Shown piece by piece: positions 297 to 36,694 of a stretch of DNA of 64,000 nucleotides. The stretch comes from a virus: the IMG/VR virus record IMGVR_UViG_3300045988_113151; one strand, written 5' to 3'. The first letter of the stretch is position 1; each line of letters begins with the position of its first letter. A model generated the notes under the pieces. It ran no database searches and was not told where the DNA came from. It worked only from the letters and a program-made list of their open reading frames with translations. A program made the translations under genes and the position numbers.

Positions 297-671
297 TTAT
301 GATTTTAGTATATTAATTAAATTATCAACATCTTTATTATTGCGAACTATATAAAATTTAGTATTTGGTTCATTTAGACTTAAATAATATTTAAATAGTT
401 TTTCCCTATTTGCCCAAGCGTCATTAGGGTATCCTTTACATTCAATAACAAAGTCTTTTCCTACAAAGTCAGGTAAATAAGTAATAGCTCTAATCTTAGA
501 GCTATTATAAATAAAAGCTGGTAGCAAAGTATATCTATGTAATTCATAGTCTACTTTAATATCAGCTTCTTTTAATTTCTAGTACATATAAGCTTCTAGT
601 TTAGATCGAAATATTATTCCATCTATTTCTTGTTTAGTAGCATTACGTACTTTCTTATTTTGTTTTAACAT
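297..671 (-). CDS. DUF1064-like PD-(D/E)xK nuclease, 124 aa if an in-frame TAG is read through
   Basis: The track ORF 297..527 carries YLPDF...IECKG, typical of DUF1064 nucleases. The same frame continues upstream across one TAG (plus-strand cta at 579-581) to ATG at 669-671. This adds the expected N-terminal IDGIIFRSKLEAYMY segment. Confidence 0.6.
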
Positions 672-9670: not shown

Positions 9671-9707
9671 AAAAAAGTAGTTAGTAAGTAATATACCTAC
9701 TAACTAC
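9671..9707 (-). terminator. Rho-independent terminator
   Basis: 10-bp stem GTAGTTAGTA/TACTAACTAC, followed on the minus strand by a six-U run. It lies 37 nt downstream of the stop of 9744..10250. Confidence 0.6.
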
Positions 9708-9743
9708 TAACTACTAAAAATAAACACACAACAATAAAAACAA

Positions 9744-10250
9744 CTAAGCTGCCAAGCTTAAAGGAGCGATAGTATCATCAAACTCCGTTTCGTTATTAAA
9801 CTTTTCAAGTTTATTGTTCAATTCAATTATTTGTAAATCTAGTTCTTTAATACGTGCAAATTTCCAGTTAGAAGTAAAAATTTCTGTACGATTTAAATTT
9901 TTCTTACCTTTCTTTGCTTTAAGAACAGGATTTAATGTTCGAAAACTATTTGAACTAATTTTATTACGAATTTCTTTTAGCTCACATAGACGAAAAATGT
10001 CTAACTGATTACAATCTTTCGGTAAATCACTTAGTTTCTTAAGTCCCATATTAATAGCAAGTAACTTAAGTTTAATCAATGCACGCTTTTCAGCAAGCAT
10101 TTTGATTTCTTCAAATAAAACTTTTAGGTCATATTTACGCATATAGTTTTTATTTACTACATTTTCTGCATAAATAATGTCCCAATATTGTTTTAACTGA
10201 TATGATATATTATTACGTTCTTCTATAAAATTCTTTGATTTCTTTGTCAT
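9744..10250 (-). CDS. hypothetical protein, 168 aa, ends at TAG
   Basis: ORF track. The stop codon is TAG (plus cta 9744-9746), and the C-terminus is SLAA. Confidence 0.5.
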   Translation of the reverse strand: MTKKSKNFIEERNNISYQLKQYWDIIYAENVVNKNYMRKYDLKVLFEEIKMLAEKRALIKLKLLAINMGLKKLSDLPKDCNQLDIFRLCELKEIRNKISSNSFRTLNPVLKAKKGKKNLNRTEIFTSNWKFARIKELDLQIIELNNKLEKFNNETEFDDTIAPLSLAA

Positions 10251-10410
10251 ATATTTTGAGTTTTAATTGATTAGTACTAAAGTTATATAACATATTAGAA
10301 ATCGTTTACCTGTGCCGTGGTATCCATATTGAAATGGCAGCATAGTTCTTATTCTCCTAGCTTTCCAGTTATTCCCTATCAGTTACGGTAGGATTATTAC
10401 CACGATAATA

Positions 10411-10439
10411 ATAACTAGAGACCCATCATCTCTAGTTAT
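10411..10439 (-). terminator. terminator-like hairpin
   Basis: 11-bp perfect stem ATAACTAGAGA/TCTCTAGTTAT with a 7-nt loop, about 100 nt downstream of the stop of 10538..11083. The flanking U-run is imperfect. Confidence 0.35.
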
Positions 10440-10537
10440 TAGAAATTATTTTTGTTTGACTTTCGTCGAATTTTCAATCTAAGGTTTAAAGTTCCATCAA
10501 CATATACTTAAATTAAAAATTGGTTTATAAAGAAATA

Positions 10538-11083
10538 TTATGGTTTCCGTACTAGTATTTCCACATCTCCTATTACTTCACCACTATTTAATATAACAGA
10601 TGCTTGTTTTTGTGAAAAAGCAATTGTTTCAAGACCTTCATTTTTTCTAGTAGGTCTAGAACTAGACATATTTATATATTGGCTAGTATATTCTCCATCC
10701 ATATTACCGCCATATCTTAGAACATCAAAAAGCATATCAATTACATATTCATAGTTATTATTCCGAACAGCTTTATCCATAAAATCCTTAGTCATCCCAT
10801 CAAACACAGGATTAGAATAATTACCATTTGGAACTGATATAACATCCATAATTGTTAATGCTAAATCACGAAAACTTATATCTTTATAGTCACTAAACCA
10901 TAAGCATAACCATTTAAATCGCCGTCTTTTAGTATAGAAACGAACTGATCCATCATCATGAATTTCTATACTACCAACAACCTTATCACCCATCGTGATA
11001 TGTTTATAGACATACTTATTATTTAGTATAAAACGTAATAAGTCTTTATGAACTTCACTAATTTTTACTTCTGTGTTGTTCAT
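10538..11083 (-). CDS. hypothetical protein, 181 aa
   Basis: ORF track. Confidence 0.5.
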   Translation of the reverse strand: MNNTEVKISEVHKDLLRFILNNKYVYKHITMGDKVVGSIEIHDDGSVRFYTKRRRFKWLCLWFSDYKDISFRDLALTIMDVISVPNGNYSNPVFDGMTKDFMDKAVRNNNYEYVIDMLFDVLRYGGNMDGEYTSQYINMSSSRPTRKNEGLETIAFSQKQASVILNSGEVIGDVEILVRKP

Positions 11084-11094
11084 TTTTATTTATA

Positions 11095-11655
11095 TTAAAG
11101 TCCATATTGACGATAATATTCGTCACAGCTCTGCTGCTGACCTTTAATAAGTTCTTTAAGCATAGTCATCTGTGCTAAGAAATCATTAGCAAGTGCCTCT
11201 GCCTTCTCTGCTTCCTGTTTGTTACGGAAATTAGCTTCATCTGTCAATCGTTTCCGATCGGCAAAGAATAGCGGAGTCTGATTATTCTTAGCTCGAATAC
11301 ATGCTTCTTCAATTGCCGAATTATCTGTTGCTTCTGCAAAGAATTTCGGTTCTTGAACAATCTTAGCCCGTAATTCTGGCTTTTCGTTGAACTCAATGAA
11401 AATCTCATCATTAATAACAAGAAGTCGTTGAGATGACACAAGAACAGTGTTAACCATATATTTTAATAGTGGTTCTACTAACCGTGGATGTTGATTAGTA
11501 AGTTCCTTCTCACGATGAGAAAGATCAACATTGTCAACTTGCAAATAACAGATAGTCTTACCTAAAAGGCTACCCATATTACTTACTACCTTACGAGCAT
11601 CCCGTAAGCGTGCTTCAATTTTCTGTTCGTTTCCTTGATTATAATTATTTTCCAT
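11095..11655 (-). CDS. hypothetical protein, 186 aa, visibly higher G+C than neighbours
   Basis: ORF track; predicted coiled-coil-rich; lies next to the 2 kb ORF-free segment. Confidence 0.5.
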   Translation of the reverse strand: MENNYNQGNEQKIEARLRDARKVVSNMGSLLGKTICYLQVDNVDLSHREKELTNQHPRLVEPLLKYMVNTVLVSSQRLLVINDEIFIEFNEKPELRAKIVQEPKFFAEATDNSAIEEACIRAKNNQTPLFFADRKRLTDEANFRNKQEAEKAEALANDFLAQMTMLKELIKGQQQSCDEYYRQYGL

Positions 11656-13705
11656 TTTGATAAAATTTTTATTTAATTGCAGAACCCATCGTTCCTAAGT
11701 AACACACTAGCAGTTCTCTTAATTCAGTATAATTAATAGGCGTCTTATATCCTATCGCTTTTAAAAAGCTTAGAAATAATTATAGTAAATCTCTAATTCA
11801 ATAGATACTATACATATTACCATTATAAAAAATCTGATACAGTATGATAAAACTCGACATTTAATTCTTATTTACCTTCACTGATACTATTCTGATAACT
11901 TCTGCAATTAAGGTTGTTTGAAATTATTTGTTAATTCTCTGATATTTATTATCGTAGTTATATTCTAGAGCTCTTGGTAGAGGTGCATACAACAGGGACT
12001 CTAATGGTAAGAGATATATACCCCGTAAGATAATTGGTTTAGCTGATTATTTAAAGAGCCTAACAGTAAATACCTAAAAACGTGCTCTACTCATTTTTAT
12101 CCATTCGTCAGTTGAGTGCTGGGTTTCTGATACTGTATATTATATCTACCGAGACAGGGTAGACCTTTTGTCGACATCAGCGCTGCCGGTTTTGTTATGA
12201 GCTGTTTATGTTTCAAAACACCCACTCTATAGCCTTGTATTACTCACAGGCTGCGTGTACTTACGACTTTGTTCTTATCCTGCACATAATTCTAGGATTT
12301 CCACCTATCATCCCTTAATGGAGGGAATCAGTGTCACTTTACATATATTGTTGCGCAATATACTTTAAGTGGTTCTAGTGTTAGCAATTATATTGTACAG
12401 TCGAGGGTGGCTCGATATAGCTTTTAACTATACACTATACTACCATTGGACTTCCTCATTGCTTTAGTTGAACATGTTAATAATCTCACAAAAAGAAACC
12501 CTTACATATTAGACTTACTATCTACATTTAGTGTCAGTAAAGTGTAGCTGCTAAAATGGGGAATGCACAGATTATACTCCGATCTGCTTCGTCCTCTAGG
12601 TTAAAATATTTCACGACTTTCCTTACTGGTTGTAAGGCTCAATGTTTTTAAATATACAACGTTATCTCAATGTTGCCAACTCGAATTTGATCAGGGAGTT
12701 ATTTCTCCACTAGCTTTAGATTTTCTGTTTATACTAATTACTTCTAATCTATGATATAGAGTTTTCTGGCTCTTCATCCCATATCTACTTTATTTCCTAG
12801 TGCAAAGCACTTTAGGTTTATACTCATCTAAGTAGCAACTGAGTTTAATTATAATATTACTTAGTCCACACAATCCCATTAAACTGAGAATTATTTCTTG
12901 CAAAATACTTTAATTATACTTCCGATTAGTTATTAAATATAACATTACATATAGGCTTTATACCTAATCCAGTTAATCTATATTATATCCATCTTACTTA
13001 CAACGTAAGTTCTATATAATGATCATAGCTACTCAGCCAAAAGGCATGTAATTTACTACTCACTTATCATATAATTAAATAGTGCTATAATATTTATAAT
13101 TCTACCTTCATACATACTGCTTTAAACATTCTTTCTTTAATGCACACTTCCAATTTAAGCTTTCCAAAGGCACGTGTCAGTATGGAACACTATAGTAGTA
13201 TTTTTAGTAACTTTATAGCTACAAGGAAGATTTGGAGTCTACCTAGAATGCTTAACGATTCTATAAATACATATCTACTAAAGTTTGGAGCTTTAGTACT
13301 TTCTTTATCCTCGCACTTTGCGAGTTTGCGACTCGTGTAAGGTAACATTCCCTTTTGATATTCAGTTTGATAACTGGTATTCGAATGTATTAACGATACC
13401 TGGCATTGTTTAACTTCATAAATCTGCTGATTTAATCGTTGCGTCTTTAGTCACCAATCGGTTCTCACTGAGGATGTGCCACGCTCTTCCTCTTTCTCGT
13501 CATTTCTTCAGTCTTAAACAGTAAATTCGACATGATCAAGTTATTATACCTTCGTTCACTCAATAATAGTGGTAGCTATTATTCCAGCCTCTAGTATTAT
13601 GTACTGTTAATGCTTACTTTACTCAATTTCAGCATTCCTCTTCCTATTTGAATAGGAGCGTCTAGGCGAAGCAATTACGTTGCTAACGAATGCAGTTTAT
13701 AGCTC
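11656..13705. other. 2 kb ORF-free segment A: candidate structured non-coding RNA or long UTR
   Basis: The only track ORF is 66 codons (13140..13340, plus strand). TAA, TGA and TAG occur in every frame on both strands. G+C is higher than in flanking genes, and there are many local hairpins. Confidence 0.6.
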
Positions 13706-14128
13706 TTATTTCGCGCTTTGCTGCTCTAGTTGCGCGTCAGTTTTATCTTCACTGATAATATTTACCTTACATGTGTTAAGGTCTAGAAATCCGACATAGT
13801 TAGTTCCTTTTACTAAGTCTATTGTTTTATGTTTGATATCATACGAAGATACAAACGAAATAGGGTCAAATACAGTAGCATCGAATTCATCTAATTTCTT
13901 AGATAGTTCTTCTACTCTATATTCTAACTTCTTAATAAGTAAACTAGATTGATTAAGTATCTCATTAATTTGTTTGTTAAACTCATGAGATACTTTACCA
14001 TCTTCTATGACAATTCTAGTAGCAGAAGAAGCTTTAGACAACTCTATTCTGCTGTTCTTTAAATTGCGAATAACTTCTGAAGTACGAAGCATGTGTTGAA
14101 CGACTAGTCTATTTCTCGTCATCTTCAT
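13706..14128 (-). CDS. hypothetical protein, 140 aa
   Basis: ORF track. Confidence 0.5.
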   Translation of the reverse strand: MKMTRNRLVVQHMLRTSEVIRNLKNSRIELSKASSATRIVIEDGKVSHEFNKQINEILNQSSLLIKKLEYRVEELSKKLDEFDATVFDPISFVSSYDIKHKTIDLVKGTNYVGFLDLNTCKVNIISEDKTDAQLEQQSAK

Positions 14129-14519
14129 TATTATTCCAAATTAAAGGTTCTACATTATTTCGTATAATTACCTTGTTCTCCAATACGAGAGGAGCAACAC
14201 GATATGGCGCAGGTCGATTATCCACTACGACAGGCTTCTCAACTATACGCTCAATATACTTTTTAATTGTTCGTATACTATCTTTCTTAACAATGTTTAC
14301 ATTAGCAGTAGCTGTACCTTCTACTGTAACTTCTTCATTCTTAAGGTCAATATTAATAGTAGATGGTAAGATTGTTTCAACAGGTCTTGGAACATCTACA
14401 TAACGAGGGACAGGAGCCAGTTCTGCCTTTGGTGCAGTTTGTTTAAGTGCATCATAGCTAACAAAGCTTCCGAAAGTTAAGATACCTAGTATCATTAACA
14501 TATTAATACGGTTATTCAT
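14109..14519 (-). CDS. membrane-anchored hypothetical protein, ends at TAG
   Basis: N-terminal hydrophobic helix MLMILGILTFGSFV. The stop codon is TAG (plus cta 14109-14111). Confidence 0.5.
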   Translation of the reverse strand: MNNRINMLMILGILTFGSFVSYDALKQTAPKAELAPVPRYVDVPRPVETILPSTINIDLKNEEVTVEGTATANVNIVKKDSIRTIKKYIERIVEKPVVVDNRPAPYRVAPLVLENKVIIRNNVEPLIWNNNEDDEK

Positions 14520-14525
14520 ATTTGA

Positions 14526-16073
14526 TTATGCTTTAGAGTATGCAGATTCATCAATGTAATTTGCTAATCGTTTTACAGGATCTTTATACAATCCAGCTAT
14601 TTCAGTAAGTTTATTTTGAACTAGCTGAGTAGAATCTCCTAGGTTATACATATTATTAATTACAGAGAAAATCTTATCTCCTTTAATTTTATTTACAAAG
14701 TCTTTATTGTACTTACCTTCAATCATTCCTTCAATAGTTACTGGAATATTCTCTTCTTTATTAGCAATCTTTTTGATTATTTCATCAGTAGATGATTTGC
14801 TTAGCATATCATTAAAGATTGTAACAGAGGCGTCCGCTCCAGTCTTTTCTGTAGCAAATTCTTCAGCACTATTAGCAAGCATTACCTTAATAAAATCAGC
14901 AATCTGTTGTTCATTATATCCAAGACCTTCAAAGTCTTTATACAACAAACTGTGTGCAATATATGGAGAATTATTTCCAATCAGAGCACCAGATGCTTTA
15001 CTCATTAAACCTTTCAAACAAAGTGTTTTTGTTTGATTAAACTTACTGTACATTAGAGCTAAAGTAGTAGTAGGATTATCAGATTTAACTTCAAATGCTT
15101 TATTTGCCCATTCAATAGCATCTTTAACATTCAAAGCCATCCGTTGTGTAGCGTTGATTTTAGTACCTTCTGCAATATTACTACGACTTAGAATTCCTCT
15201 AAGAGCGTTAAGCTTTTCTTCTTCAGTCAGCTTAGGATCTGCTTCAGGTATTTCAAACTTGGTTGCTTTAGCATCTGCTTTAGCAGCCTTTTTTACATCT
15301 TCAGGTACTGTTTCAAATTCAAGATTTAATTGTTTTCCGTCTTTAGTTGGTAAGGCTTTAACATCTACTCCATACATATTTAAGAATTGATTCTTAATCT
15401 GTGGATATACATCTTTAGTTATAGTAATACCCTTAAGAATAGACTTACCTTCTTGTTCTAGTTGCATTGCATATAACAAACACAACTGACACAATCCTCC
15501 ACTATATACTTCCTTCATTGCGGCAACTTGTTCGCGAGGCAAGTCTTCGTCAGTATCAATATAAGTTTTACGGATTAGTGATAACAATTCTACTTGATGG
15601 TTTTCATCAATACGTTCCTTATTTGCAATCATAGCTACTCCACGTGTAATATCAATAGGTAGTTGTTTTTCGGTCTTTTCCTTGTTGATATCTACAGTCT
15701 CTGGAATAATAGTTTCAACTTTTTCTTCCTTTTTCTTTTCTTCCTTCTTCTGAGATTTCTCAGATTCAGGTTTTTTGTCTTCTTTTTTACCTCCTTCTTT
15801 TTCTGGTTTTACACTAGCCTTAGTTTCCTCAGGCTTCTTCTCCGTTTTCTTTTCTTCTTTAGAAGTATTTTTAACTTCTTCTTTTGGTTTTTCTACAGGC
15901 TTCTTTTCCTGTTCTTTAGGTTTATTACTTGGTTGAACTTCTTCTTTCTTTTCAACCTTTTCAGTCTCTTTTTCTTTTGTAGGTTCTTCTACTTTTACAG
16001 TATTAACCTTATTTTCTTTAATCTTTGCTGCTAAGTTAGATTTGTTTTCTTTTCCTTTATTACGTTTTGACAT
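14526..16073 (-). CDS. hypothetical protein with a Lys/Glu-rich disordered N-terminal third, 515 aa
   Basis: ORF track. About 130 aa of KE/KP low complexity are followed by a globular region. Confidence 0.55.
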   Translation of the reverse strand: MSKRNKGKENKSNLAAKIKENKVNTVKVEEPTKEKETEKVEKKEEVQPSNKPKEQEKKPVEKPKEEVKNTSKEEKKTEKKPEETKASVKPEKEGGKKEDKKPESEKSQKKEEKKKEEKVETIIPETVDINKEKTEKQLPIDITRGVAMIANKERIDENHQVELLSLIRKTYIDTDEDLPREQVAAMKEVYSGGLCQLCLLYAMQLEQEGKSILKGITITKDVYPQIKNQFLNMYGVDVKALPTKDGKQLNLEFETVPEDVKKAAKADAKATKFEIPEADPKLTEEEKLNALRGILSRSNIAEGTKINATQRMALNVKDAIEWANKAFEVKSDNPTTTLALMYSKFNQTKTLCLKGLMSKASGALIGNNSPYIAHSLLYKDFEGLGYNEQQIADFIKVMLANSAEEFATEKTGADASVTIFNDMLSKSSTDEIIKKIANKEENIPVTIEGMIEGKYNKDFVNKIKGDKIFSVINNMYNLGDSTQLVQNKLTEIAGLYKDPVKRLANYIDESAYSKA

Positions 16074-16163
16074 TTTGATATGTTTACGACAGTCCTTTCT
16101 GCCTTTTAAGTTAAAAAATAAATTAATAATTTAATGGTTTAAAAACTTGATAGTAGAAGCATT

Positions 16164-16547
16164 TCAACTATCGTTAACAATCTCTGGTAGGTTTAACACT
16201 TTATTAGGTGTGCCTATTGATTTAGCTACAATGTCACTCTCCATTTCCTTACCCATTACCTTGTATGTAGCTTTATTTTCTATTTCCTGGTAATTATTAC
16301 TAGGAATAGTAAATAAAACATAAGATAATGTGGGATTAGGAGTTGTAGCTTTATCTACTACAGCTTTCTCAGGCTTACTATTATCATCACTATTAGTGAT
16401 AAAATAGTATCCTGCACCTAATAACAAACCTAATGCTAATGTAGTTAGCATTCTTGTACAAGCATCAATTCTTTGTTCAGTTTTCATTACTCTAGATATA
16501 ATGAAAATGATGATGATTGCAAGCAACAAATAAATTATCGTTGACAT
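16164..16547 (-). CDS. two-TM membrane protein (possible anti-sigma partner)
   Basis: Two hydrophobic segments; located immediately downstream of the sigma factor gene. Confidence 0.4.
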   Translation of the reverse strand: MSTIIYLLLAIIIIFIISRVMKTEQRIDACTRMLTTLALGLLLGAGYYFITNSDDNSKPEKAVVDKATTPNPTLSYVLFTIPSNNYQEIENKATYKVMGKEMESDIVAKSIGTPNKVLNLPEIVNDS

Positions 16548-16560
16548 GATTTGTTAGGTA

Positions 16561-17118
16561 TTAGTAAATATTTGCTATTTTTTGTTTTAATCGTTGTCTT
16601 GCTTTATTTAAATCTGATTTAACTTTAGATTCTGGTAAAGCAAATTTTTCAGATATCTCATTATAAGATAGACCTTCTATTCGAGCGTTTATTAAATCTC
16701 TATATTTCTTTCTAAGTGTTAGAATAGCTTGTTCAACTATTTTTACTTTTTCTTGTAAAACTAATTGTTCTTCAGGACTTTTTTCGATATTTTCTAATTG
16801 AATAGTATTATCTTCATCGTCCATATAGTTATTTAATTGCTCTTTCTTATTTCTTCTTATATAATCTATTGAACTGTTAACTGCAATAGTTTTTAACCAC
16901 ATTTCAAATGAAATATGTTGTACATAAGAATCTAATTTTTGATAAGCTTTAGTAAATACTACAGATGTTAAATCATCTGCTATATCTGTATTCTTTACTA
17001 TATTATAAATAGTAAACCAAATATTTGATTTATATAATTTATAAAGCTTAGTAAAGGCACTTTCTGAACCTTGTTTAGCCTGTTCTACTAAAGTAATTAC
17101 TTCTTGTGTCATAGGCAT
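16561..17118 (-). CDS. ECF-type sigma-70 family sigma factor
   Basis: Region 2-like DDLTSVVFTKAYQKLDSY...WLKTIAVNSSIDYIRR. Region 4 HTH LSYNEISEKFALPESKVKSDLNKARQRLK. Confidence 0.75.
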   Translation of the reverse strand: MPMTQEVITLVEQAKQGSESAFTKLYKLYKSNIWFTIYNIVKNTDIADDLTSVVFTKAYQKLDSYVQHISFEMWLKTIAVNSSIDYIRRNKKEQLNNYMDDEDNTIQLENIEKSPEEQLVLQEKVKIVEQAILTLRKKYRDLINARIEGLSYNEISEKFALPESKVKSDLNKARQRLKQKIANIY

Positions 17119-17164
17119 AAAATATTAGTGAGCTATAGTCTACCCAACGACTATAGCCCTAAGT

Positions 17165-17575
17165 CTAAAATGGTAAAGTCGATATATAGTATCTACTACA
17201 TTCAGCAAATCTAAAGTTAAACAAAAGAAGTATATGATTTCCCCAGTATATTTTAGCAATCTCTGGTATTTGTAATTTATCTATCATATTTATTACAATT
17301 CTAAGTTTTACTCTAGATGTACTTTCTGTAATAGTAAATCCTTTATCATTTATTAGACAATCTACAATAGGTTGAAATATAGTTCTATTTGCATATCTAG
17401 CTAATTCTACTACTTCTTTACTTCTATGAATAGTAAAATCTAAAGGATAGATATGCGGATCATCTTCTATGTTATAATACTTATCACTAAGATATTTTTC
17501 ACATATAGGATTATAATTGAACATATATTCATAAGGTAGATTTTTGTTAATAGTATCTAAAACTTCGATAAGCAT
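17165..17575 (-). CDS. hypothetical protein, ends at TAG
   Basis: ORF track; stop is TAG (plus cta 17165-17167). Confidence 0.45.
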   Translation of the reverse strand: MLIEVLDTINKNLPYEYMFNYNPICEKYLSDKYYNIEDDPHIYPLDFTIHRSKEVVELARYANRTIFQPIVDCLINDKGFTITESTSRVKLRIVINMIDKLQIPEIAKIYWGNHILLLFNFRFAECSRYYISTLPF

Positions 17576-17579
17576 ACTA

Positions 17580-18035
17580 CTAAATATAATTAAGAAATTT
17601 CTTAATTTTATTTTCTAAGATATTTGATGCTTGCCCAACATCAATCTTATACTCTTTACAAATTGTAATAATGAATTTGTTGTCACATTCTGCTGTTCCA
17701 TACATCTCCATATACGCTTTGTACTTTTCTGTGAGTTCTTTGATTTCCTCATCTGTTATTACTTCACACTTTTTAAAAGTACGAGTACCAATTCCTAATA
17801 AACTATTAACAGCACTAGTTACGGTTAATTTATCAAATGTATATTGGTCGGGATTTTGAACAATATGTTGTACTTCAATAGAATTTTCACCTAATTCTTT
17901 TACTCTTCCAGTATTAAAGAATTCATTCATTGAGATACCTTTTAAAATTTTGATAAATGGAGCCTCACCTACTGCTTTAATAATTATGTTCTGGCTAGGT
18001 CCCTGAGCCATCCATACTCCTTCTTTTAATGCCAT
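17580..18035 (-). CDS. hypothetical protein, ends at tandem TAG-TAG
   Basis: ORF track; plus ctacta at 17577-17582. Confidence 0.45.
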   Translation of the reverse strand: MALKEGVWMAQGPSQNIIIKAVGEAPFIKILKGISMNEFFNTGRVKELGENSIEVQHIVQNPDQYTFDKLTVTSAVNSLLGIGTRTFKKCEVITDEEIKELTEKYKAYMEMYGTAECDNKFIITICKEYKIDVGQASNILENKIKKFLNYI

Positions 18036-18037
18036 AG

Positions 18038-18229
18038 TTACTTACTTTTTGATTTGTAAAACTTTTGTGAAATTTGATATGCCATTGTTAAATCAATGCC
18101 ATATTTTGTTATTAACTTTTGTCTAAAGTCATCTATATCTTCAGATTGTTCTCCTAGTTTAATGACTTCATCTTTTAAACCTGGCTTATTAAATTTAATC
18201 CAAGTTACAGTTTCAAATAATTTTTCCAT
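18038..18229 (-). CDS. hypothetical small protein
   Basis: ORF track. Confidence 0.4.
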   Translation of the reverse strand: MEKLFETVTWIKFNKPGLKDEVIKLGEQSEDIDDFRQKLITKYGIDLTMAYQISQKFYKSKSK

Positions 18230-18232
18230 TAA

Positions 18233-18523
18233 TTACTGACAGTTATATTCATAGTTTGATACTTGTTCTTGAATATTACTCCAAAAACTTAGTCCTTCTT
18301 CTAAACTAAGTGATACACATATTGCTTGGATAGAATATGTTGTATACAAACGATTTATCATATTAATAGCTTCCTTATAATGATATTTATCTTTTAAGTT
18401 ACTAGGTATGTATTTTTGATATACTTGTTTAGTAAAGCTACAATAACATTTATTACGTTTCATAATAGTACGCCATGATTCTGGCATTCTATCTTTACAA
18501 GCTTGTCTAATACTTTTTTCCAT
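18233..18523 (-). CDS. hypothetical small protein
   Basis: ORF track. Confidence 0.4.
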   Translation of the reverse strand: MEKSIRQACKDRMPESWRTIMKRNKCYCSFTKQVYQKYIPSNLKDKYHYKEAINMINRLYTTYSIQAICVSLSLEEGLSFWSNIQEQVSNYEYNCQ

Positions 18524-18537
18524 AATATTATAATTAT

Positions 18538-18819
18538 TTAAAGTTTTTGTACATTAGTACTATTTTTTTGCTCCTTTCTCTGTTTCATTAGTTTTTTTAT
18601 TTTACCTAATATATTATCCCAATATTCAAATCCTTCTTTAGTACTACTCCAAGAAAATCCACCACTCCATGATCCTGCTGTGGGATTTTTTTCAAATACT
18701 TGTAAATCAGGTTTATTTCCATGTCTTGCTTGATTCTTAAGCATTTTCTGTTTTATTTCTGGTGGTAAAGTCTGAATACTATAAAATTCTGTTTTCTTTC
18801 TATGTCTTCCTCTATTCAT
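18538..18819 (-). CDS. hypothetical protein with FSW...EG..YW motif
   Basis: Start moved to the internal Met (MNRGRHRKK) so that it does not overlap the tRNA-like element. It shares a motif with 23075..23407. Confidence 0.45.
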   Translation of the reverse strand: MNRGRHRKKTEFYSIQTLPPEIKQKMLKNQARHGNKPDLQVFEKNPTAGSWSGGFSWSSTKEGFEYWDNILGKIKKLMKQRKEQKNSTNVQKL

Positions 18820-18834
18820 AATATTAAAGTTTAG

Positions 18835-18908
18835 TTCACGGAGCAGGATTCGAACCTGCACTCATTTCCCATATCCGTTCTGTGTCTAACCAATTGCACC
18901 ATCCGTGA
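18835..18908 (-). pseudogene. tRNA-like element with a non-folding anticodon arm
   Basis: Perfect 7-bp acceptor TCACGGA/TCCGTGA, D-arm-like GTGCAATTGGTTAGACAC and canonical T arm GCAGG-TTCGAAT-CCTGC. The 17 nt at the anticodon-arm position (GAACGGATATGGGAAAT) cannot pair. Confidence 0.45.
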
Positions 18909-19764
18909 CCTGCTTTTTACGACATTAGCTTAGCCGTTGACTTATCGTATTACGCTGCAATACGAGTATAGTCTGTTACAAAAGATTTGTCATTTCTGAC
19001 GTCTATTGACCTATTCATTTTCATCCTCGCTGTCAAATCCATAATACCCCATTAGTAGGATTTTCACCTACTTTGAAGCTTTGCGACATTTAGTCTAGGA
19101 GTGGTTTATACCCTTGCCAAGAGGAATCGAACCTCTATGCTTCTGACCGTGGAGTATGAGGGAGTCGAACCCTCGTCCAAACGATTCATCCAATGACCTA
19201 ACAGTCAATATAGTAGTATATAGTTAAATCAATAACTATATACTTAAATATGAATAAACTGTAGGTAAGTATAATAAAAATAATAATCGGAAATATACTT
19301 TAAATACAGAGGCAGATAACTTACTATATGTTTAAAGATTTACTTCTATATCTAAGAGTAGCATCAACTATTACTTTATTATAGGCTCTAGGCTCGCTTA
19401 CTCTACAGTTTTAAATAGGCTTTGATTGCATGTATAGTATAGCAAGTGCTCATGTAAAACAGACTCGATTGAACTATAGGCATAAAGCTCTCTATACATA
19501 TACAATTTGATTTTGTGTACTGTTTATCGTCATAAGACTATTCATAGTACAAACTTCGCCAGTTTTATACCCTCGTGGCTTATAGCTCTTGAGTTTAGAA
19601 CGATCTTTAGGCTCATGATCAGTGGCACGTTTTTTACCCAGCAAAATGGGTCAAGCCTCTATTGCTTGTTGTCAATTCAACTGTGTACAACATCCTGCAT
19701 CAAAAGACGACTTATCATGTTCTATGTACAGATTTGTCATAAAGACTTCTTCTTGGGTTGTCGA
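18909..19764. other. ORF-free segment B
   Basis: No credible ORF on the transcribed strand. It contains tRNA T-arm-like hairpins and repeated 10-11-mers. Confidence 0.5.
19120..19174 (-). ncRNA. two adjacent T-arm-like hairpins (tRNA remnants?)
   Basis: Minus sense: GAGGG-TTCGACT-CCCTC (19158-19174) and AGAGG-TTCGATT-CCTCT (19120-19136). No matching acceptor or anticodon arms were found. Confidence 0.3.
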
Positions 19765-20190
19765 TTAATAACGCCAAGCGTCATCACCGTAAATATCACG
19801 TTTTCCTTTTTCAATAGCTTTATCTCGGGTTTCTTCAGCCTTTGATATAGCACTGTCATAGGTTTCGTAATTACCTGTGGTTTCGAGGTCTTTTCTTGCT
19901 TCACTCACTTCTTTCAGATAGATTTTCTGAGCTGCTTCTTTTATACGAGCCATACGAAGACCCTTCAAAGCATCATCTTCTTTGCTTTCTGAATTACGCA
20001 AGCGCTGTTCAATTCGTTGAGTTTCTTCTTTCAGTTTACGTTCTGCAATATTATTCTTTGCAGCTTCAATTGCTTCTTTAGAACCAACTTTCTGTTTTTC
20101 AGATTGAGCAGTAATAGCAGCTTCAACATCGAATTCAGCACACAAAACGTTTGCGCCTAAGATAGCGCTTGTAAAATTTACATTTTTCAT
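19765..20190 (-). CDS. hypothetical protein with signal-peptide-like N-terminus
   Basis: ORF track; MKNVNFTSAILGANVLCA followed by a charged helical region. G+C is higher than in neighbours. Confidence 0.5.
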   Translation of the reverse strand: MKNVNFTSAILGANVLCAEFDVEAAITAQSEKQKVGSKEAIEAAKNNIAERKLKEETQRIEQRLRNSESKEDDALKGLRMARIKEAAQKIYLKEVSEARKDLETTGNYETYDSAISKAEETRDKAIEKGKRDIYGDDAWRY

Positions 20191-20241
20191 AATTGTTTGA
20201 AATTTTAATTGTTAATAATTGATTTATTTAAGAAATGAATA

Positions 20242-20379
20242 TTAATAGTATATCTCACTAAGTTCATTACTGAGTTCTTTATTTTCCTCTGTAAGATATT
20301 CAATTTCTACTTGAGATTCTAATATAATTTCTATTAGTTCTTCTTTTGTTTCTGTTTCTAATTCTTCTTGTGTCCACAT
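20242..20379 (-). CDS. small acidic coiled-coil ORF, 45 aa
   Basis: Hand translation MWTQEELETETKEELIEIILESQ...; below the track length cut-off. Confidence 0.3.
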   Translation of the reverse strand: MWTQEELETETKEELIEIILESQVEIEYLTEENKELSNELSEIYY

Positions 20380-20643
20380 AGACTTTTAAATTTAAGAGAG
20401 TTATCTGTCTATTCGTACGTCTTATTCAACAGAAGCCCTTTTCCTTCTCCTGACCTATTACTAGGTTGACCGTTGTATAGTCCGTAGTACTCTATCTGTT
20501 AAGATTCCTTTAGGGGTTTGGCTTTATAACTCTCTAGGCTTAACTTCACCATAACTTAATAATTAAGTTAAAAACAAATTATCTGGCATGATAATATTAG
20601 TTGTTATAATAAATATTACTTTATTACTACACGCATGGAGATT

Positions 20644-20766
20644 TTACCTTCCACGTTTATAAGGCTCTAATTTCTTATGCCTTATTTTCTTTTTAGATTG
20701 ATACTCGTAAGCTTTTTCAGATTGCTTAGATCCTGGAAAATGAGATTCCTTGTAAGTCTTTCCCAT
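20644..20766 (-). CDS. small basic ORF, 40 aa
   Basis: Hand translation MGKTYKESHFPGSKQSEKAYEY...KRGR. It starts 1 nt after the stop of 20768..21148. Confidence 0.3.
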   Translation of the reverse strand: MGKTYKESHFPGSKQSEKAYEYQSKKKIRHKKLEPYKRGR

Positions 20767-20767
20767 A

Positions 20768-21148
20768 TTACATATCCATTATATAATACATTTTAGCTGC
20801 TAACTCTGGTATATAACTAGCTTTGATATTAGTTAGATAACTAAGATCAGATGTACTAGGTGTCATTAATATACGCAAAGCTTCTTTGTTATTAGTACTA
20901 ATAATAGATGCTTTCAAATAGTCTTTAAACTTACTAGAACTTGGATGATATCCGGATTTAGCTTCAAATTGTTTAACAAGTTTAACAAATTCAGAATCTT
21001 TAGCATTTAATCTTTCTTGAGATGCATCTTCCTCTGACAATAATACAGGTTTAGTATTAAAACCAATTTGTTCAGAGAATTTAACCATAGCATTTTTAAT
21101 ACTTGATTCACTTACCTCATTAGGTATGCATATTACGACTACTTTCAT
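20768..21148 (-). CDS. hypothetical protein, 126 aa
   Basis: ORF track. Confidence 0.45.
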   Translation of the reverse strand: MKVVVICIPNEVSESSIKNAMVKFSEQIGFNTKPVLLSEEDASQERLNAKDSEFVKLVKQFEAKSGYHPSSSKFKDYLKASIISTNNKEALRILMTPSTSDLSYLTNIKASYIPELAAKMYYIMDM

Positions 21149-21158
21149 AATTTTGATA

Positions 21159-21419
21159 TTATTTAATTTCAGTTAGTTTACTTTTTTTATTTGTATTACG
21201 ACTGTTAACATCAGCGTATTTATCTCTATTGTGTATTTTACCACAACGAATACAGAAGACTCTATCTTCTCCATTTTCTGATGGAGAGATTCTAGTACCC
21301 CAGATATGACCATATTTAATACAGTCAATTCTTCTTAATTTCTCTATTTCTTCTAGAGTTGTTCTTTTGCTACACACGTTAGCTAATTTCATAAAGAACT
21401 TTGTTAAATATTTTCTCAT
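21159..21419 (-). CDS. small zinc-ribbon-like protein
   Basis: CIKYGH...CIRCGKIH Cys/His pairs. Confidence 0.45.
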   Translation of the reverse strand: MRKYLTKFFMKLANVCSKRTTLEEIEKLRRIDCIKYGHIWGTRISPSENGEDRVFCIRCGKIHNRDKYADVNSRNTNKKSKLTEIK

Positions 21420-21844
21420 TTACATATAAATTAATAGTTTAAAAGTTAATATTAATGATGGCGTCTCATAGTTGCAGCTATGAGATTGTAATCAGTTTAA
21501 TTGAAAAAGATTTAAAGTTGATACAGTATACTGCAATATACTTACCAGTTCTCCAATAGGATAGCTTTTGTTAATAGAGCGAACTATTTTACATTTTTGA
21601 CTCTCACATATTTAAACACATGCAGAAAAGCTGTCAAACCAATCTTACTGTGTACATGATTTTAACGCCCGCACGATCATAAATACATTTAATCAATAGG
21701 TTATTTATAATTTGCATACGTATGTCTCACTAATTTTAATCAACTATCATAGTATTTACTTACGCCCCACATGTTTGTCATCTTCTGAAGGAGCTATATT
21801 CCTGTTTCTCAACTGTAATATAGCAAAGACAATTTTAAAATAAA
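21420..21844. other. ORF-free segment D
   Basis: No ORFs. It contains copies of the ACATGATTTTAA and GCCCCACATGTTTGTCA blocks shared with segment E, and the hairpin 21464-21485. Confidence 0.5.
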
Positions 21845-22270
21845 CTAAAATGAAGATTTTAAAGAGTCGTTCTTTGGTTCAGGTATACTTGGTTTAGGCA
21901 TACTGTCTGGTAAATATTGTTTTTGCACATCCATAGCATGTTTAATAATCTTATCATAGAACTCTTTATTTGTAATATAAGTATTTACAATATCTTGAAT
22001 AGATATTTGTGTTCCTTTTGTTACAAGTATTTGAGTAACTATTTGAGTAGGCATATCTAAGTATACACTATCACAATAGCGATAAAATCTCATTTCTTCT
22101 CTTTCTTGCAATACTTCCTTTACAGAAGGAATGTATTCTTGTTCAATAGAATCCGTATCAGGGATATCATTGATTGCTTGTGGTTTTTTCACACAGCTTG
22201 TTAGTATAGTTATTAACATAACTATTGCTAAAATAGCAAATAATTTTAAAGATTTAAATTTTTCTTTCAT
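21845..22270 (-). CDS. putative lipoprotein, ends at TAG
   Basis: Signal peptide with lipobox-like ILTSC. The stop is TAG (plus cta 21845-21847). Confidence 0.55.
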   Translation of the reverse strand: MKEKFKSLKLFAILAIVMLITILTSCVKKPQAINDIPDTDSIEQEYIPSVKEVLQEREEMRFYRYCDSVYLDMPTQIVTQILVTKGTQISIQDIVNTYITNKEFYDKIIKHAMDVQKQYLPDSMPKPSIPEPKNDSLKSSF

Positions 22271-22294
22271 TTTTGATAATGTTTTTAATTAATT

Positions 22295-22486
22295 TTACTG
22301 TAACATTGAATAGATTTCAGCAGCACTTTCTTTAACTTCTGCTATAACTACTTCTTCTTCGCCTAAATTAGTATAAATATAAGTACAGTCTTCTCCATCA
22401 CAAATAGATGAAATTATTTCTGTATTTATTACTGTATTACCTAGCGTTTCTGGATCAGCGTTAGTTAATAATATAAATTTCTTCAT
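22295..22486 (-). CDS. hypothetical small protein
   Basis: ORF track. Confidence 0.4.
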   Translation of the reverse strand: MKKFILLTNADPETLGNTVINTEIISSICDGEDCTYIYTNLGEEEVVIAEVKESAAEIYSMLQ

Positions 22487-22603
22487 TGTGGTATAATATT
22501 ATAAATTATTACTAATAGTGATACTAATATATATAAACTAATCATAATAGTTTTATGATTGTCTATAAATTGTAACATTTTATCTAATAAGATGTCACAA
22601 ATA

Positions 22604-22879
22604 TCAGGGTTTGAATCTGTCTTCATACTTCTCACTGTTTTTATTATCTAAATTGTGATTAGCAGAAGCTCCTAGTTCGTATATAAATCTAATTACGCAG
22701 AATATGCATAACGTGATTATAATAACACACCACCATTTGTAATAGTCATATAGACTACCATGCTTTAGCTCAAAGGCTAAACTTTCATCTAAAACTGCAT
22801 CAATATTAGCTTTTAACCATAGTGTTACTATAGTAAGAGCTACTATAAATCCAGCTAAAAAATTGATTAAACTTTTCAT
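22604..22879 (-). CDS. two-TM membrane protein
   Basis: Two hydrophobic segments in the ORF-track translation. Confidence 0.45.
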   Translation of the reverse strand: MKSLINFLAGFIVALTIVTLWLKANIDAVLDESLAFELKHGSLYDYYKWWCVIIITLCIFCVIRFIYELGASANHNLDNKNSEKYEDRFKP

Positions 22880-23100
22880 TCTTTAATTTGATTTAATAGT
22901 TGATTACTAGAATTCTTCCAATTAGAAAGTAATTCATTAAATTTATCTCTTAATTCTAACAATTGTTCTTTCTCTTCATCTGTTATACATTTATAATCAG
23001 ATTCAAGAGTAATAAGTAAAGAAGATAGATTACATTTTAGACCAAATAATCTAAAATAAGTAAAATTCCTATACCTATTTAGCTTTGATTTCTTGTTCAT
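22876..23100 (-). CDS. hypothetical small protein
   Basis: ORF track; 4-nt overlap with the downstream gene. Confidence 0.4.
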   Translation of the reverse strand: MNKKSKLNRYRNFTYFRLFGLKCNLSSLLITLESDYKCITDEEKEQLLELRDKFNELLSNWKNSSNQLLNQIKE

Positions 23101-23407
23101 ACTTTGCTATTTTATTATAAATTATATTCCAATAGTGAATACCTTTTATTGAATCTTTCCAAGAAAAAGTAGTTATTATATAAAATATTACATAATTACT
23201 TCTTTTTTTATATAGGTTGAGACCTCTATAATTATAATTACGAAAACTCATATTATAATGTATTACTTCGGAAACAAATTCACTCAAACAATTAAAATGA
23301 ATTAAAGCGTGTAACAAGTTATATGACATGTTTGTCATAATGTGATGTCTCATATCCTGCTTAATTCGTTTTAAATCTTTGTCTGTATAATCTACAATAT
23401 TTTCCAT
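23075..23407 (-). CDS. hypothetical protein with FSW...G..YW motif, ends at TAG
   Basis: TTFSWKDSIKGIHYWNIIYNKI parallels GGFSWSSTKEGFEYWDNILGKI in 18538..18819. The stop is TAG (plus cta 23075-23077). Confidence 0.45.
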   Translation of the reverse strand: MENIVDYTDKDLKRIKQDMRHHIMTNMSYNLLHALIHFNCLSEFVSEVIHYNMSFRNYNYRGLNLYKKRSNYVIFYIITTFSWKDSIKGIHYWNIIYNKIAKYEQEIKAK

Positions 23408-27325: not shown

Positions 27326-27733
27326 ATGAAACAGTATAAAGTTATTAAAGAATTTGGTTGTGCCAAAAAAGGAGATATTTTCTATGAAACATCTGAGGGA
27401 CATTTTGAAATGGATAACACATCTGAGTGCGTGGATATGTATAGCAATCGTAATATGTGTATCAGCCCCAATATTATTAACACACTATTGGATGCAAAAT
27501 TTGTTGAAGAATTTAACTCAGAAACGAAAGAAGAAGAATTCGCAAAAGATAAACTGACTAGTATAAGTAACTTTATCTATGAAGCTAAAGAACAGTATAA
27601 GAAAGACCATGATAGTTTAGTTGATGAATATAATGAAGGCAACTTACCTGCATGTGTAAAAGTAGAAGCTGATACTGTTTACTTTAATATGAATAAGATA
27701 CTAACTAAAATTGAGGAACTAATAAATGAATAA
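27326..27733 (+). CDS. hypothetical protein, 135 aa
   Basis: ORF track. Confidence 0.5.
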   Translation: MKQYKVIKEFGCAKKGDIFYETSEGHFEMDNTSECVDMYSNRNMCISPNIINTLLDAKFVEEFNSETKEEEFAKDKLTSISNFIYEAKEQYKKDHDSLVDEYNEGNLPACVKVEADTVYFNMNKILTKIEELINE

Positions 27734-28100
27734 ACTAGTTAAGGAATGTAAGAAGAAAGATCTATATTCTGAATTCTTGAGGTCCTTAAACGGTATTATT
27801 CAACTACCAGACAGGGAGTTACAGCTACTTACTACTTTAGTAGACTTATAGATAAATAAGCAAAAACTCCCTGGTACTAGTGAGAGTGTAATTAGTACAG
27901 AAAATAGAAAGTATATCACTCATACTTTAGGTATTACTCCTGATAATTTGAGTAGATATTTAAGTAAATTCAAAGAACAAGGACTCCTAGTAAGAGGAAA
28001 AATAGATAATGAGTGGTTAGTAAATAAAATACTTATACCTGAAATAATTAAAGATAGAGTACAAATAACTATTATACTTAAAGTAAACAATGAAGAATAA
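27726..28100 (+). CDS. winged-helix DNA-binding protein, requires TAG read-through
   Basis: Hand translation from ATG 27726 with an in-frame TAG at 27849-27851. HTH-like LGITPDNLSRYLSKFKEQGLLVRG. Ends at TAA 28098. Confidence 0.5.
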
Positions 28101-32541: not shown

Positions 32542-33090
32542 ATGTTACATTTCTTTGATATAGTAGGAGGAGAAGTAGTAATACATGCAGACTTATGGGC
32601 ACTACCGCCATTTGAAAAACTATGGAATCTAGATAAAGATCCTACTAAAGCTCACGCTAATAAGGTAGTAAAATTTATTATACTATGTGATTACTGGAAT
32701 AGCCCATATGTAAAGAGTATTAGTAGCACTGAGCTTAGAGAAAAGAAGTTAAAAGAAAGGATATTTAAAGATGAAAATTACTCTCTTACTTTAGATGAAT
32801 AGATAAGCAGAGATGAGTATAAAGAGCTTATTAACACTAGAAACCTTAAGATGCTAACTTCTATTATGAACAAATTAGATACTATCAGTAATTACTACGA
32901 ATCCTCCTTAGAGGAAGAATTAGATGAAACCAAAATAGGTAAGTTGTTAGCAGGATTTGAGAAAGTAAAAGGTACAATGCAAACTATAGATTTTCTAGAA
33001 AAGTCTGTTAAAGCAGAAGAGCTCGATAATACTAAAGTTAAAGGTAATTCTCAGATTAATCCATACGAGTTGGTAAAAAAAGTACAGTAA
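32542..33090 (+). CDS. conserved phage protein upstream of TerL (small terminase candidate), one in-frame TAG
   Basis: Track ORFs 32542..32802 and 32851..33090 share a frame and are separated only by TAG at 32800-32802. Confidence 0.45.
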
Positions 33091-36692: not shown

Positions 36693-36694
36693 TT

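Follow-up and report, generated by a model that had tools for sequence, protein, structure and literature searches.

Does TAG act as a stop codon, as a sense codon, or as both within one phage genome, and what becomes of the proteins whose genes end at it? The question is raised by the leftward genes of the window (the whole stretch of viral DNA analysed, 64,000 nucleotides), six of which end at TAG while other genes of the same DNA carry TAG in frame. A sequence-only reading had proposed that TAG stops translation early in infection, that a suppressor tRNA later makes the late genes translatable, and that the C-terminal extensions then added to early proteins might help to switch them off.

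Distribution of in-frame TAG in the window

The best nucleotide matches of the window were crAss-like phages, with patches of 76–90% identity to cr6_1 and MT835473. cr6_1 is classified under Suoliviridae, Bearivirinae, Afonbuvirus. Judged by these matches, the window comes from a gut crAss-like phage of the Suoliviridae (Crassvirales) that stands near Afonbuvirus cr6_1. The leftward block holds a primase, a DnaB-like helicase, a DNA polymerase and a sigma-like factor. The labels 'early' and 'late' are applied here to the blocks on the strength of gene content, strand and position. The coordinates of the features are collected in Table 1, and genes are referred to by their left coordinate.

Table 1. 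Features of the window that bear on the use of TAG
Feature	Position	Strand	Remarks
TAG-ending gene 9744	9744..10250	-	168 aa; TAG at 9744-9746; helical; conserved disordered acidic tail ending [LI][AVT]A
TAG-ending gene 14109	14109..14519	-	136 aa; ends TAG; overlaps start of next gene (ATG at 14128)
TAG-ending gene 17165	17165..17575	-	136 aa; ends TAG ACT TAG
TAG-ending gene 17580	17580..18035	-	151 aa; ends TAG TAG T-ATG, abutting ATG of next gene (17575)
TAG-ending gene 21845	21845..22270	-	141 aa; ends TAG
TAG-ending gene 23075	23075..23407	-	110 aa; ends TAG GTA TAG; overlaps start of next gene (23100)
Terminator-like hairpin	9676..9708	-	15 pairs and T-run; downstream of 9744
Hairpin after 17165 stop	17159-17130	-	5 nt past the stop; followed by sigma-factor-like gene 16561-17118
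DUF1064/Holliday-junction-resolvase-like gene	297..671	-	in-frame TAG 579-581, codon 31
wHTH-like regulator gene	27726..28100	+	in-frame TAG 27849-27851, codon 42
182-aa ORF	32542..33090	+	in-frame TAG 32800-32802, codon 87
Suppressor tRNA	33403..33475	+	anticodon CUA; 5' edge of TAG-rich late block
Late block	33510..63989	+	packaging and virion genes; read in code 15

When the in-frame TAGs were counted, 97 were found among 9,931 late codons and a single one among 6,318 leftward codons (Fisher p = 7e-20). In the rightward genes that precede the tRNA there were 2 in 2,177 codons (p = 1e-6). At the late-gene rate, about 62 would be expected in the leftward genes.

Eighteen of the 23 late ORFs carried in-frame TAGs (1–16 each). 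TerL and portal had 13 each; the standard code interrupts such conserved late genes, and reading TAG as sense restores them. TerL is the first late gene, and its codon 5 is a TAG. On alignment with cr6_1, the in-frame TAGs of the window faced Gln at 22 of 66 positions and TAG at 18 of 66. In the reverse comparison, 30 of the 57 in-frame TAGs of cr6_1 aligned to Gln in the window. As these alignments indicate, TAG in the late genes is a Gln codon (code 15), and it makes up about a quarter of the Gln codons of the late block. The base following a sense TAG (+4) was A or G in 72% of cases, compared with 60% for CAA/CAG.

The suppressor tRNA invoked by the sequence-only reading was recovered; it borders the TAG-rich late block at its 5′ edge and lies 35 nt upstream of TerL. 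A tRNA-CUA was also found at the equivalent position in cr6_1, L094, L096, L097 and L099. This placement fits time-dependent suppression, which is the published model, and no new inference is drawn from it.

The blocks are not perfectly clean, as three genes outside the late block have a conserved single in-frame TAG. These are the DUF1064 gene, the wHTH gene and the ORF at 32542, for which read-through had been said to be necessary; the TAGs were confirmed, and orthologues aligned across the TAG in all three. The DUF1064 TAG, the sole in-frame TAG of the leftward codons, falls inside the Pfam match (residues 10–96). It occupies the matching codon in 30 of 37 orthologues (those of the window and cr6_1 clades), with K, R or Q in distant ones. 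Selection on this TAG was considered and set aside, its retention alone being insufficient: the window and cr6_1 have also both kept 27% of the late-gene TAGs. The wHTH gene sits near the start of the rightward block; its TAG was kept in all four close relatives, with Asp in cr6_1 and L094. The TAG of the 32542 ORF was likewise kept in four of four close relatives and was replaced by Gln in L094 and by Lys in cr6_1, the cr6_1 version having two other in-frame TAGs.

C-termini of the leftward genes that end at TAG

All six TAG-ending ORFs were found on the minus strand under the standard code, as had been claimed. Among about 36 solid leftward genes (an earlier count gave about 37 ORFs), 25 end at TAA, 5 at TGA and 6 at TAG. 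Six more short ORFs of 46–52 aa also end at TAG; they occur where ORFs are sparse, two coincide in part with matches to Rfam RNAs (Hatchet and RAGATH-14), and all were discounted from the gene count. A 17% share of TAG stops is by itself not unusual, and the contrast in in-frame TAG density is the non-random part. The +4 bases after the six stops were T, A, A, T, T and G (six sites only). A search for the function of the six proteins gave no Pfam or PHROG matches.

Orthologues were compared at their C-terminal ends. For 9744, 81 of 82 stop at the identical residue, and the stop is TAA in 73 and TAG in nine. Protein database homologues agree with this end: 26 of 29 are 163–168 aa long and finish with the same terminal motif. 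An AF2 model of the 9744 protein had a pLDDT of 92, and its comparison with the PDB gave no fold match. For 17580, 68 of 75 orthologues end at the equivalent position; in the 75, the stop is TAA in 65 and TAG in 10, and the cr6_1 orthologue ends TAA TGA. The tandem TAG directly before the next ATG, noted in the sequence-only reading, was seen in the window as described, and the TAG TAG is kept in nine relatives. All 13 orthologues of 17165 end at the identical residue (9 TAG, 2 TAA, 2 TGA).

For 21845, six close relatives (92–98% identical) have TAA at the matching codon, and a single contig besides the window has TAG. The remaining two genes showed more variable ends. TAG stands at the matching codon of 14109 in nine close relatives, and three more distant orthologues end 4–6 codons earlier with TAA or TGA. 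In 23075, close relatives differ at the C-terminus: their ends are displaced by anything from −11 to +10 codons, and one reads TAA TAG. For 14109 and 23075, the orthologues recovered included none at intermediate distance. Orthologues with TAA or TGA at the window's TAG codon, ending at the same residue (9744, 17580 and 17165), together with the TAG/TAA polymorphism of 21845, argue that these TAGs mark true C-termini. Judged by orthologue ends, the six TAGs are genuine stop codons, as the sequence-only reading had held.

These ends bear directly on the view that TAG is Gln throughout infection and that the longer ORFs are the real products. A single code would make for simpler annotation, and the RefSeq CDS of cr6_1 do read through such TAGs. 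However, the orthologues stop with TAA or TGA exactly at the window's TAG. In cr6_1 itself, the TAGs of early CDS fall within the last 3–35 codons in seven of eight genes and are not spread along the genes. The scarcity of in-frame TAG among the leftward codons, given above, also speaks against it. A uniform code 15 thus appears extremely improbable to us. It may be noted that in seven of the 43 early CDS of cr6_1, TAG is confined to the last 3–35 annotated codons, the same pattern as in the window. Annotation with a genome-wide code 15 over-extends about one-sixth of the early genes, as seen in the RefSeq record of cr6_1.

Read-through tails and their possible consequences

The next in-frame TAA or TGA after the stops of 9744, 14109, 17165, 17580, 21845 and 23075 lies 21, 25, 30, 11, 12 and 15 codons away, respectively, so that the tails span 11–30 codons (33–90 nt). 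The lengths predicted earlier were about 21 for 9744, which held, and about 26 for 14109, which was one codon too long. The read-through frame of 9744 (9681-9743) contains two further TAGs (TAG TAG) and reaches its TAA within the 3′ arm of the terminator-like hairpin. This hairpin, whose presence had been correctly predicted, begins 35 nt downstream of the TAG (37 had been given). In close relatives, 25 or 28 codons separate the stop from the following TAA. The tail of 14109 (14034-14108) runs out of frame over the next gene. In 17165, two pairs of the hairpin show compensatory changes in L022, and the read-through frame is altered between strains by a 1-nt indel in a T-run. A Hatchet ribozyme match (21792-21654) begins 53 nt downstream of the 21845 stop. 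Hairpins follow two of the six TAG stops (9744 and 17165), and both look terminator-like.

The extended forms are not conserved as in-frame coding sequence in relatives, most orthologues having TAA or TGA at the same codon. Nor is the leaky stop itself conserved: TAG is present in 9 of 82 cases for 9744 and in 10 of 75 for 17580, and in 21845 it is polymorphic with TAA. The description of the extensions as junk-like was thus upheld, in that they are unconserved, change frame through indels, and extend into hairpins or the following gene. To judge from these comparisons, the tails look like unselected by-products. In programmed read-through, as for Q-beta A1 and retroviral Gag-Pol, a single stop likewise yields two products with different C-termini, according to whether suppression or termination prevails. 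There, both the extension and the leaky stop are conserved; in the window the extension is not, and relatives often have TAA as the stop.

The probable explanation, in our judgement, is that two decoding regimes coexist in this genome: a host-code early block with TAG stops and a code-15 late block, with the tails as tolerated by-products. The early block (the leftward genes and the rightward genes ahead of the tRNA), having essentially no internal TAG, would be readable in the host's standard code. TAG would be an ordinary stop in about one-sixth of its genes, and host RF1, presumably in competition with the suppressor, would terminate there. The late block would be translatable only once the phage tRNA-CUA, presumably charged with Gln, is present, and the early genes would be placed first in a putative temporal order of expression. 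Proteins with 13–16 TAGs would need at least 90–95% suppression per site for a useful yield, and early-gene read-through would therefore be frequent late in infection. With abundant suppressor and continuing translation of the six genes, 11–30 unselected residues would be added to their products. Such tails would be tolerated by-products and would not amount to an evolved switch. TAA to TAG changes still arise in early genes, though relatives at several distances are also recoded, which argues that early-gene read-through is rare or harmless.

A different role for the tails, namely that late suppression adds them to the six early proteins so as to inactivate or destabilize these in a programmed shut-off, has the same high suppression in its favour: if translation continues while genes with 13–16 TAGs are being read, extended forms arise. 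In the 9744 family the added residues would moreover mask the free end of the conserved disordered tail. But most relatives cannot make a tail, as the majority of orthologues have TAA at that codon. TAG and TAA also interchange between near-identical strains, and the length and frame of the tail differ between strains. The tail lengths are chance-like, being no shorter or more regular than those after TAA/TGA stops, and the tails cross terminators and neighbouring genes. The proposal that the extensions help to switch early proteins off found no sequence support, given the unconserved tails, the TAG/TAA interchange at 21845 and the indel in 17165, and we regard such a shut-off as very unlikely.

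A narrower version is that late amber suppression deliberately remodels the C-termini of some early proteins, possibly with the phage's two-piece tmRNA (18835-19209). Possible examples are the masking of the L-A-A-COOH acidic tail of the 9744 family, and the fusion of the 17165 product to the sigma-like factor where the frames match. If this were true, the two-piece tmRNA might handle read-through and non-stop products created by the code switch. We rate this idea as highly speculative and its chance of being right as slight in the extreme.

It could also be that local features keep the six TAGs efficient as stops despite the suppressor, so that extended forms are rare. The candidate features are a second TAG within 1–2 codons (17165, 17580 and 23075), the TAG TAG further on in 9744, and the downstream hairpins of 9744 and 17165. 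Extra in-frame TAGs were enriched after TAG stops, with 6 in 108 codons against 8 in 732 (Fisher p = 0.005), in a post hoc test on six genes, which counts against its weight. The conservation of TAG TAG in 17580 and the compensatory changes in the hairpin lying 5 nt beyond the stop of 17165 point the same way, but close relatives are non-independent samples. Moreover, one strain has CAG and two have TAA in place of the second TAG of 17165. Independent TAG stops of other clades lacked a nearby TAG and were followed by open frames of 19–206 codons. Reinforcement by tandem TAGs was on this ground kept only as an improbable alternative, in spite of the enrichment in the window. A TAA would protect far better, but the next TAA or TGA is farther away than in other genes: the median was 17 codons after TAG stops and 6 after genes terminated by TAA or TGA, and the idea of back-up stops near TAG-terminated genes was rejected. 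Protection by context is, on balance, unlikely, and the two decoding regimes are preferred.

Relation to published recoded phages and neighbouring RNA elements

Block-wise recoding of TAG to Gln (code 15) has been described in crAss-like and other gut phages (Yutin et al. 2021, PMC7886860; Borges et al. 2021, bioRxiv 10.1101/2021.08.26.457843; Peters et al. 2022, PMC9523058), and a citing paper also credits block-wise recoding in phages to Ivanova et al. 2014. The published model is a switch from the standard to the alternative code during infection. Like the window, the published phages have in-frame TAGs limited to late structural and packaging genes, replication genes in the standard code, a tRNA-CUA, and TAG aligned with Gln. 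There is no essential difference between them and the window; here, orthologue ends establish the stop function gene by gene.

The terms 'dual-coded' early blocks, code-dependent 'isoforms' and 'soft switch' come from Mgcod (Pfennig et al. 2022, bioRxiv 10.1101/2022.06.29.495998). As in the window, the early genes described there are near-identical in codes 11 and 15 (same start and same frame), with a short C-terminal extension if the stop is TAG, and the late strand block has the suppressor tRNA at its 5′ end. In Mgcod, two forms whose stops are less than 30 nt apart count as functionally equivalent (its default limit), whereas all the tails in the window exceed this limit. Unlike Mgcod, the orthologue comparison made here marks the short form as the conserved one. 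Dual use of TAG, temporal suppression and extended isoforms are already published. The view, already in print, that stop-codon recoding gates the late genes in time is unchanged; what the window offers is a phage genome in which one codon can be followed, gene by gene, as terminator and as Gln.

A scan for sigma-70-type promoters gave no more hits than in shuffled sequence. A literature search on ncRNA or tmRNA in crAss-like phages returned nothing relevant to set beside the two-piece tmRNA of this phage at 18835-19209. The stretch at 11.7–13.7 kb has no ORF even with TAG as sense, and codon periodicity of substitutions was seen only in one 200-nt stretch of it, and a protein-coding reading was rejected. 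The signal was weak in a crude sliding RNAalifold analysis of the whole 2-kb alignment, and block-wise realignment was needed. This ORF-free 2 kb is a conserved structured RNA that belongs to no Rfam family.

TAG as a sense codon

The window divides at ~26 kb by GC skew and gene orientation: genes within 1-25.8 kb run leftward, and those from 26 kb onwards run rightward. Its best nucleotide matches are crAss-like phages, foremost cr6_1 (NC_055894; Crassvirales, Suoliviridae, Afonbuvirus) and MT835473, and IMG/VR contigs were found whose proteins, for those tested, are 97-99% identical to its own. The leftward block encodes a primase, a DnaB-like helicase, a DNA polymerase and a sigma-like factor, as well as numerous small proteins of unknown function. 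The first ~7 kb of the rightward block carries nucleotide-metabolism and regulator-type genes; these are followed by a tRNA with anticodon CUA, 3' of which lie the TerL, portal, capsid and tail genes. In the leftward block, the DNA polymerase gene is immediately preceded by a tRNA-Arg (anticodon TCT; 8530-8604, minus strand). Since the longest ORF call for the polymerase overlaps this tRNA, its true start must be internal.

In-frame TAG accounted for 97 of the 9,931 codons of the late ORFs, compared with 1/6,318 in leftward genes and 2/2,177 in rightward genes upstream of the tRNA (Fisher, p = 7e-20 and p = 1e-6, respectively). When window TAGs were compared with cr6_1 at 66 aligned positions, 22 were matched by Gln and 18 by TAG; in the reverse comparison, in-frame TAGs of cr6_1 aligned with Gln in 30 of 57 cases. 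Because these positions align with Gln or TAG, TAG means Gln, and it supplies 26% of the late Gln codons. TerL starts 35 nt 3' of tRNA-CUA and has TAG as its codon 5, both in the window clade and in cr6_1. A useful yield of proteins with 13-16 TAGs would require about 90-95% suppression per site, or better. The major capsid gene (41910-43379) has no TAG in 489 codons, against ~5 expected at the late-gene rate (p = 0.007), which suggests that suppression is still costly and that the suppressible codon is avoided in the late gene with the highest expression.

Two further observations were made on the late block. Compared with its cr6_1 counterpart, TerL (33510-36692; 1,060 aa) is enlarged by an insertion spanning about residues 276-635, which is probably an intein, since it shows LAGLIDADG-like motifs and Cys...HN/T boundaries; it is missing from some close relatives (contig L096). 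In another close relative (L098, IMGVR_UViG_3300045988_096563), the late genes are likewise TAG-rich, and the suppressor-tRNA site is occupied by another tRNA-like 5' half and then an endonuclease-like ORF. No tRNA-CUA was called there by ARAGORN (L098 13440-13800), and the site may represent an intron-split or replaced suppressor.

TAG as a terminator of leftward genes

Dual use of TAG is already known, so that its observation in the sequence-only reading is a correct re-discovery. In crAss-like phages, TAG-to-Gln reassignment is mostly limited to late genes and occurs with suppressor tRNAs (Yutin et al. 2021, PMC7886860). The time-dependent suppression proposed earlier is the same model as that of Borges et al. 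(2021, bioRxiv 10.1101/2021.08.26.457843), in which early genes are read in the standard code, suppressor molecules are made next, and recoded late and lysis genes come last; those authors also mention legitimate terminator use of the recoded codon in a C-terminal extension. Mgcod describes early blocks as 'dual-coded', annotates short and extended products as isoforms, notes that the late strand has the suppressor tRNA at its 5' end, and discusses a 'soft switch' (Pfennig et al. 2022, bioRxiv 10.1101/2022.06.29.495998). Proteomics of crAss-like phages confirmed TAG as Gln, and no recoding was found in peptides from code-11 (standard code) regions (Peters et al. 2022, PMC9523058). The present analysis adds proof from orthologues that it is the short forms that are the conserved products, together with evidence that a recoded lineage tolerates TAG stops in its early genes.

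The six minus-strand ORFs reported to end at TAG, named by their low coordinates, were all present and all do so. ORF 17580 ends, as described, in TAG TAG T-ATG; ORFs 17165 and 23075 end in TAG ACT TAG and TAG GTA TAG. The hairpin reported after 9744 (9708-9676) is indeed terminator-like, with the TAA that ends the read-through frame in its 3' arm, but starts 35 nt past the TAG rather than 37. About 36 solid leftward genes were counted (previously ~37 ORFs), with 25 TAA, 5 TGA and 6 TAG stops; six further short TAG-ending ORFs in ORF-poor stretches, two of which overlap Rfam RNA matches, were left out of this count.

Orthologues were sampled from 80 loci around the 9744 orthologue, nine around the 515-aa neighbour and eight around the rightward 591-aa gene, together with the cr6_1 and MT835473 records, and the first stop past each alignment was read. 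Most orthologues of 9744, 17580, 17165 and 14109 ended at the same position. For 21845, the stop was TAA in six close relatives (92-98% identical), and a single other contig shared the TAG of the window; the C-terminus of 23075 varied among relatives. In a separate protein-database search, 26 of 29 homologues of the 9744 protein were 163-168 aa long and ended in [LI][AVT]A. On these comparative grounds, the six TAGs are true gene ends. The relatives examined at several distances are also recoded (cr6_1; contig L094, with tRNA-CUA and in-frame stops), and therefore the TAG stops either originated within a recoded lineage or have been maintained in one.

The C-terminus of the 9744 family (window 9747-9790) is a conserved disordered acidic tail, ...E(F/L)D(D/E)..AP..[LI][AVT]A-COOH, recognizable down to 40% identity and reminiscent of C-terminal tips of the ssrA or SSB type. 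For the 9744 protein, AF2 gave a confident helical bundle (pLDDT 92) that had no match in a PDB fold search.

Coordinates of the TAG-terminated ORFs (by low coordinate) and RNA features
Feature	Position	Strand	Observation
ORF 9744	9744	-	same end residue in 81/82 orthologues; stops 73 TAA, 9 TAG; read-through to next TAA/TGA adds 21 codons
ORF 14109	14109	-	same end residue in 9/12 orthologues, all 9 TAG; other 3 stop 4-6 codons earlier, TAA/TGA; read-through adds 25 codons
ORF 17165	17165	-	same end residue in 13/13 orthologues; stops 9 TAG, 2 TAA, 2 TGA; read-through adds 30 codons
ORF 17580	17580	-	same end residue in 68/75 orthologues; stops 65 TAA, 10 TAG; read-through adds 11 codons
ORF 21845	21845	-	read-through adds 12 codons
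ORF 23075	23075	-	read-through adds 15 codons
Block of ORF-free region	12186-12416		compensatory double changes at 15/23 predicted pairs
Block of ORF-free region	12746-12906		compensatory double changes at 11/14 predicted pairs
Block of ORF-free region	13376-13616		compensatory double changes at 24/31 predicted pairs
tRNA-like element	18835-18908	-	adjoins tmRNA
Permuted (two-piece) tmRNA	18835-19209	-	Rfam RF04321, 48.5 bits (gathering score 47); also called by ARAGORN
RAGATH-20-like	19602-19682	-	weak match, 38 bits
Two Hatchet self-cleaving ribozymes, RAGATH-9, RAGATH-14	21654-21792, 23695-23807, 20394-20547, 24181-24417	-	Rfam, above gathering scores
tRNA, anticodon CUA	33403-33475		after first ~7 kb of rightward block

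Read-through tails and in-frame TAGs outside the late block

The earlier tail length agreed with ours for 9744, while that for 14109 had been put one codon too high (~26). Among near-identical strains, the next TAA after 9744 lies 21, 25 or 28 codons away. For 17165, a 1-nt indel in a T-run (window 17100-17170) sets the read-through end: the tail is out of frame with the sigma-like gene (16561-17118, minus strand) in the window, and in frame with it, with >200 codons open, in five of nine close relatives (L013, L015, L020, L021, L022). The tails of 14109, 17165 and 23075 overlap the next gene out of frame, and those of 9744 and 17165 cross hairpins; the hairpin after 17165 (17159-17130) shows two compensatory pair changes in the relative L022. 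The extensions are thus junk-like, as had been claimed, shifting in length and frame between strains, and by these sequence comparisons the tails are not selected. The sole new element of the sequence-only reading, that extensions help switch early proteins off, is unsupported by conservation. The observation of that reading is confirmed and its interpretation partly supported.

A nearer back-up stop in TAG-terminated genes was considered and rejected, the next TAA/TGA lying a median of 17 codons away, versus 6 after TAA/TGA-terminated genes. Extra TAGs were commoner in the six tails in a post hoc test (6/108 vs 8/732 codons, p = 0.005). This pattern was not found at independent TAG stops of other clades, and some strains have CAG or TAA in place of the second TAG of 17165.

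In the RefSeq annotation of cr6_1, where TAG is sense throughout, 7 of 43 early-strand CDS have TAG only in their last 3-35 codons, as in CDS 34987-35475 (loci L001/L011), the orthologue of ORF 21845; mid-gene TAG occurs only in the resolvase. The phenomenon is the same as for the window's six; code 15 (TAG as Gln), applied to the whole genome, has probably made these seven CDS too long.

The three in-frame TAGs reported outside the late block were located as described. That of the resolvase-like DUF1064 gene (297..671, minus strand; TAG at 579-581, inside the Pfam match) is shared at that very codon by 30 of 37 orthologues, across the window and cr6_1 clades, and is replaced by K, R or Q in distant orthologues. 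Its retention alone is no proof of selection, because 27% of late-gene TAGs are likewise kept between the two clades; it is plausible that a suppressible stop gates the junction resolvase. The TAGs at 27849 in the wHTH gene (27726..28100, plus strand) and at 32800 in the 32542..33090 ORF (plus strand) are each kept in 4/4 close relatives. The former corresponds to Asp in cr6_1 and L094, and the latter to Lys in cr6_1 and Gln in L094. The cr6_1 and L094 proteins align across both sites.

RNA elements of the leftward block

The region around the TAG-terminated genes is unusually rich in RNA elements by Rfam (see table). The tag ORF of the tmRNA is VRNDKSFVTDYTRIAA, ending ...RIAA-TAA, and several RefSeq crAss-like phages have the same element under the annotation SsrA. 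Finding a tmRNA in a phage that does away with one of the stop codons is suggestive, and a link to recoding is conceivable. Between the two Hatchet copies lies a gene cluster (23407-21845) that both begins and ends with a TAG-terminated ORF.

In a stretch of ~2 kb (11720-13700, minus strand), no ORF was found, even when TAG was allowed as sense, and Rfam gave no match at E <= 0.1. The stretch is conserved throughout the phage group, in distant relatives better than the flanking proteins, and the same gap is present, unannotated, in cr6_1 (45.8-47.9 kb). Three of its blocks were realigned with 11 relatives, and compensatory double changes were found in each. In controls for block 12186-12416, 94% of cells were paired, compared with 27-47% with partners slid, and the observed values were reached in 0/500 shuffles. 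The stretch is a candidate for a new large structured RNA that seems to be confined to this phage group. Its 25-nt core motif occurred in at least 80 of the IMG/VR contigs listed (82 matching stretches), nearly all of 50-150 kb, and, among 185,579 genomes, in only two stray contigs.
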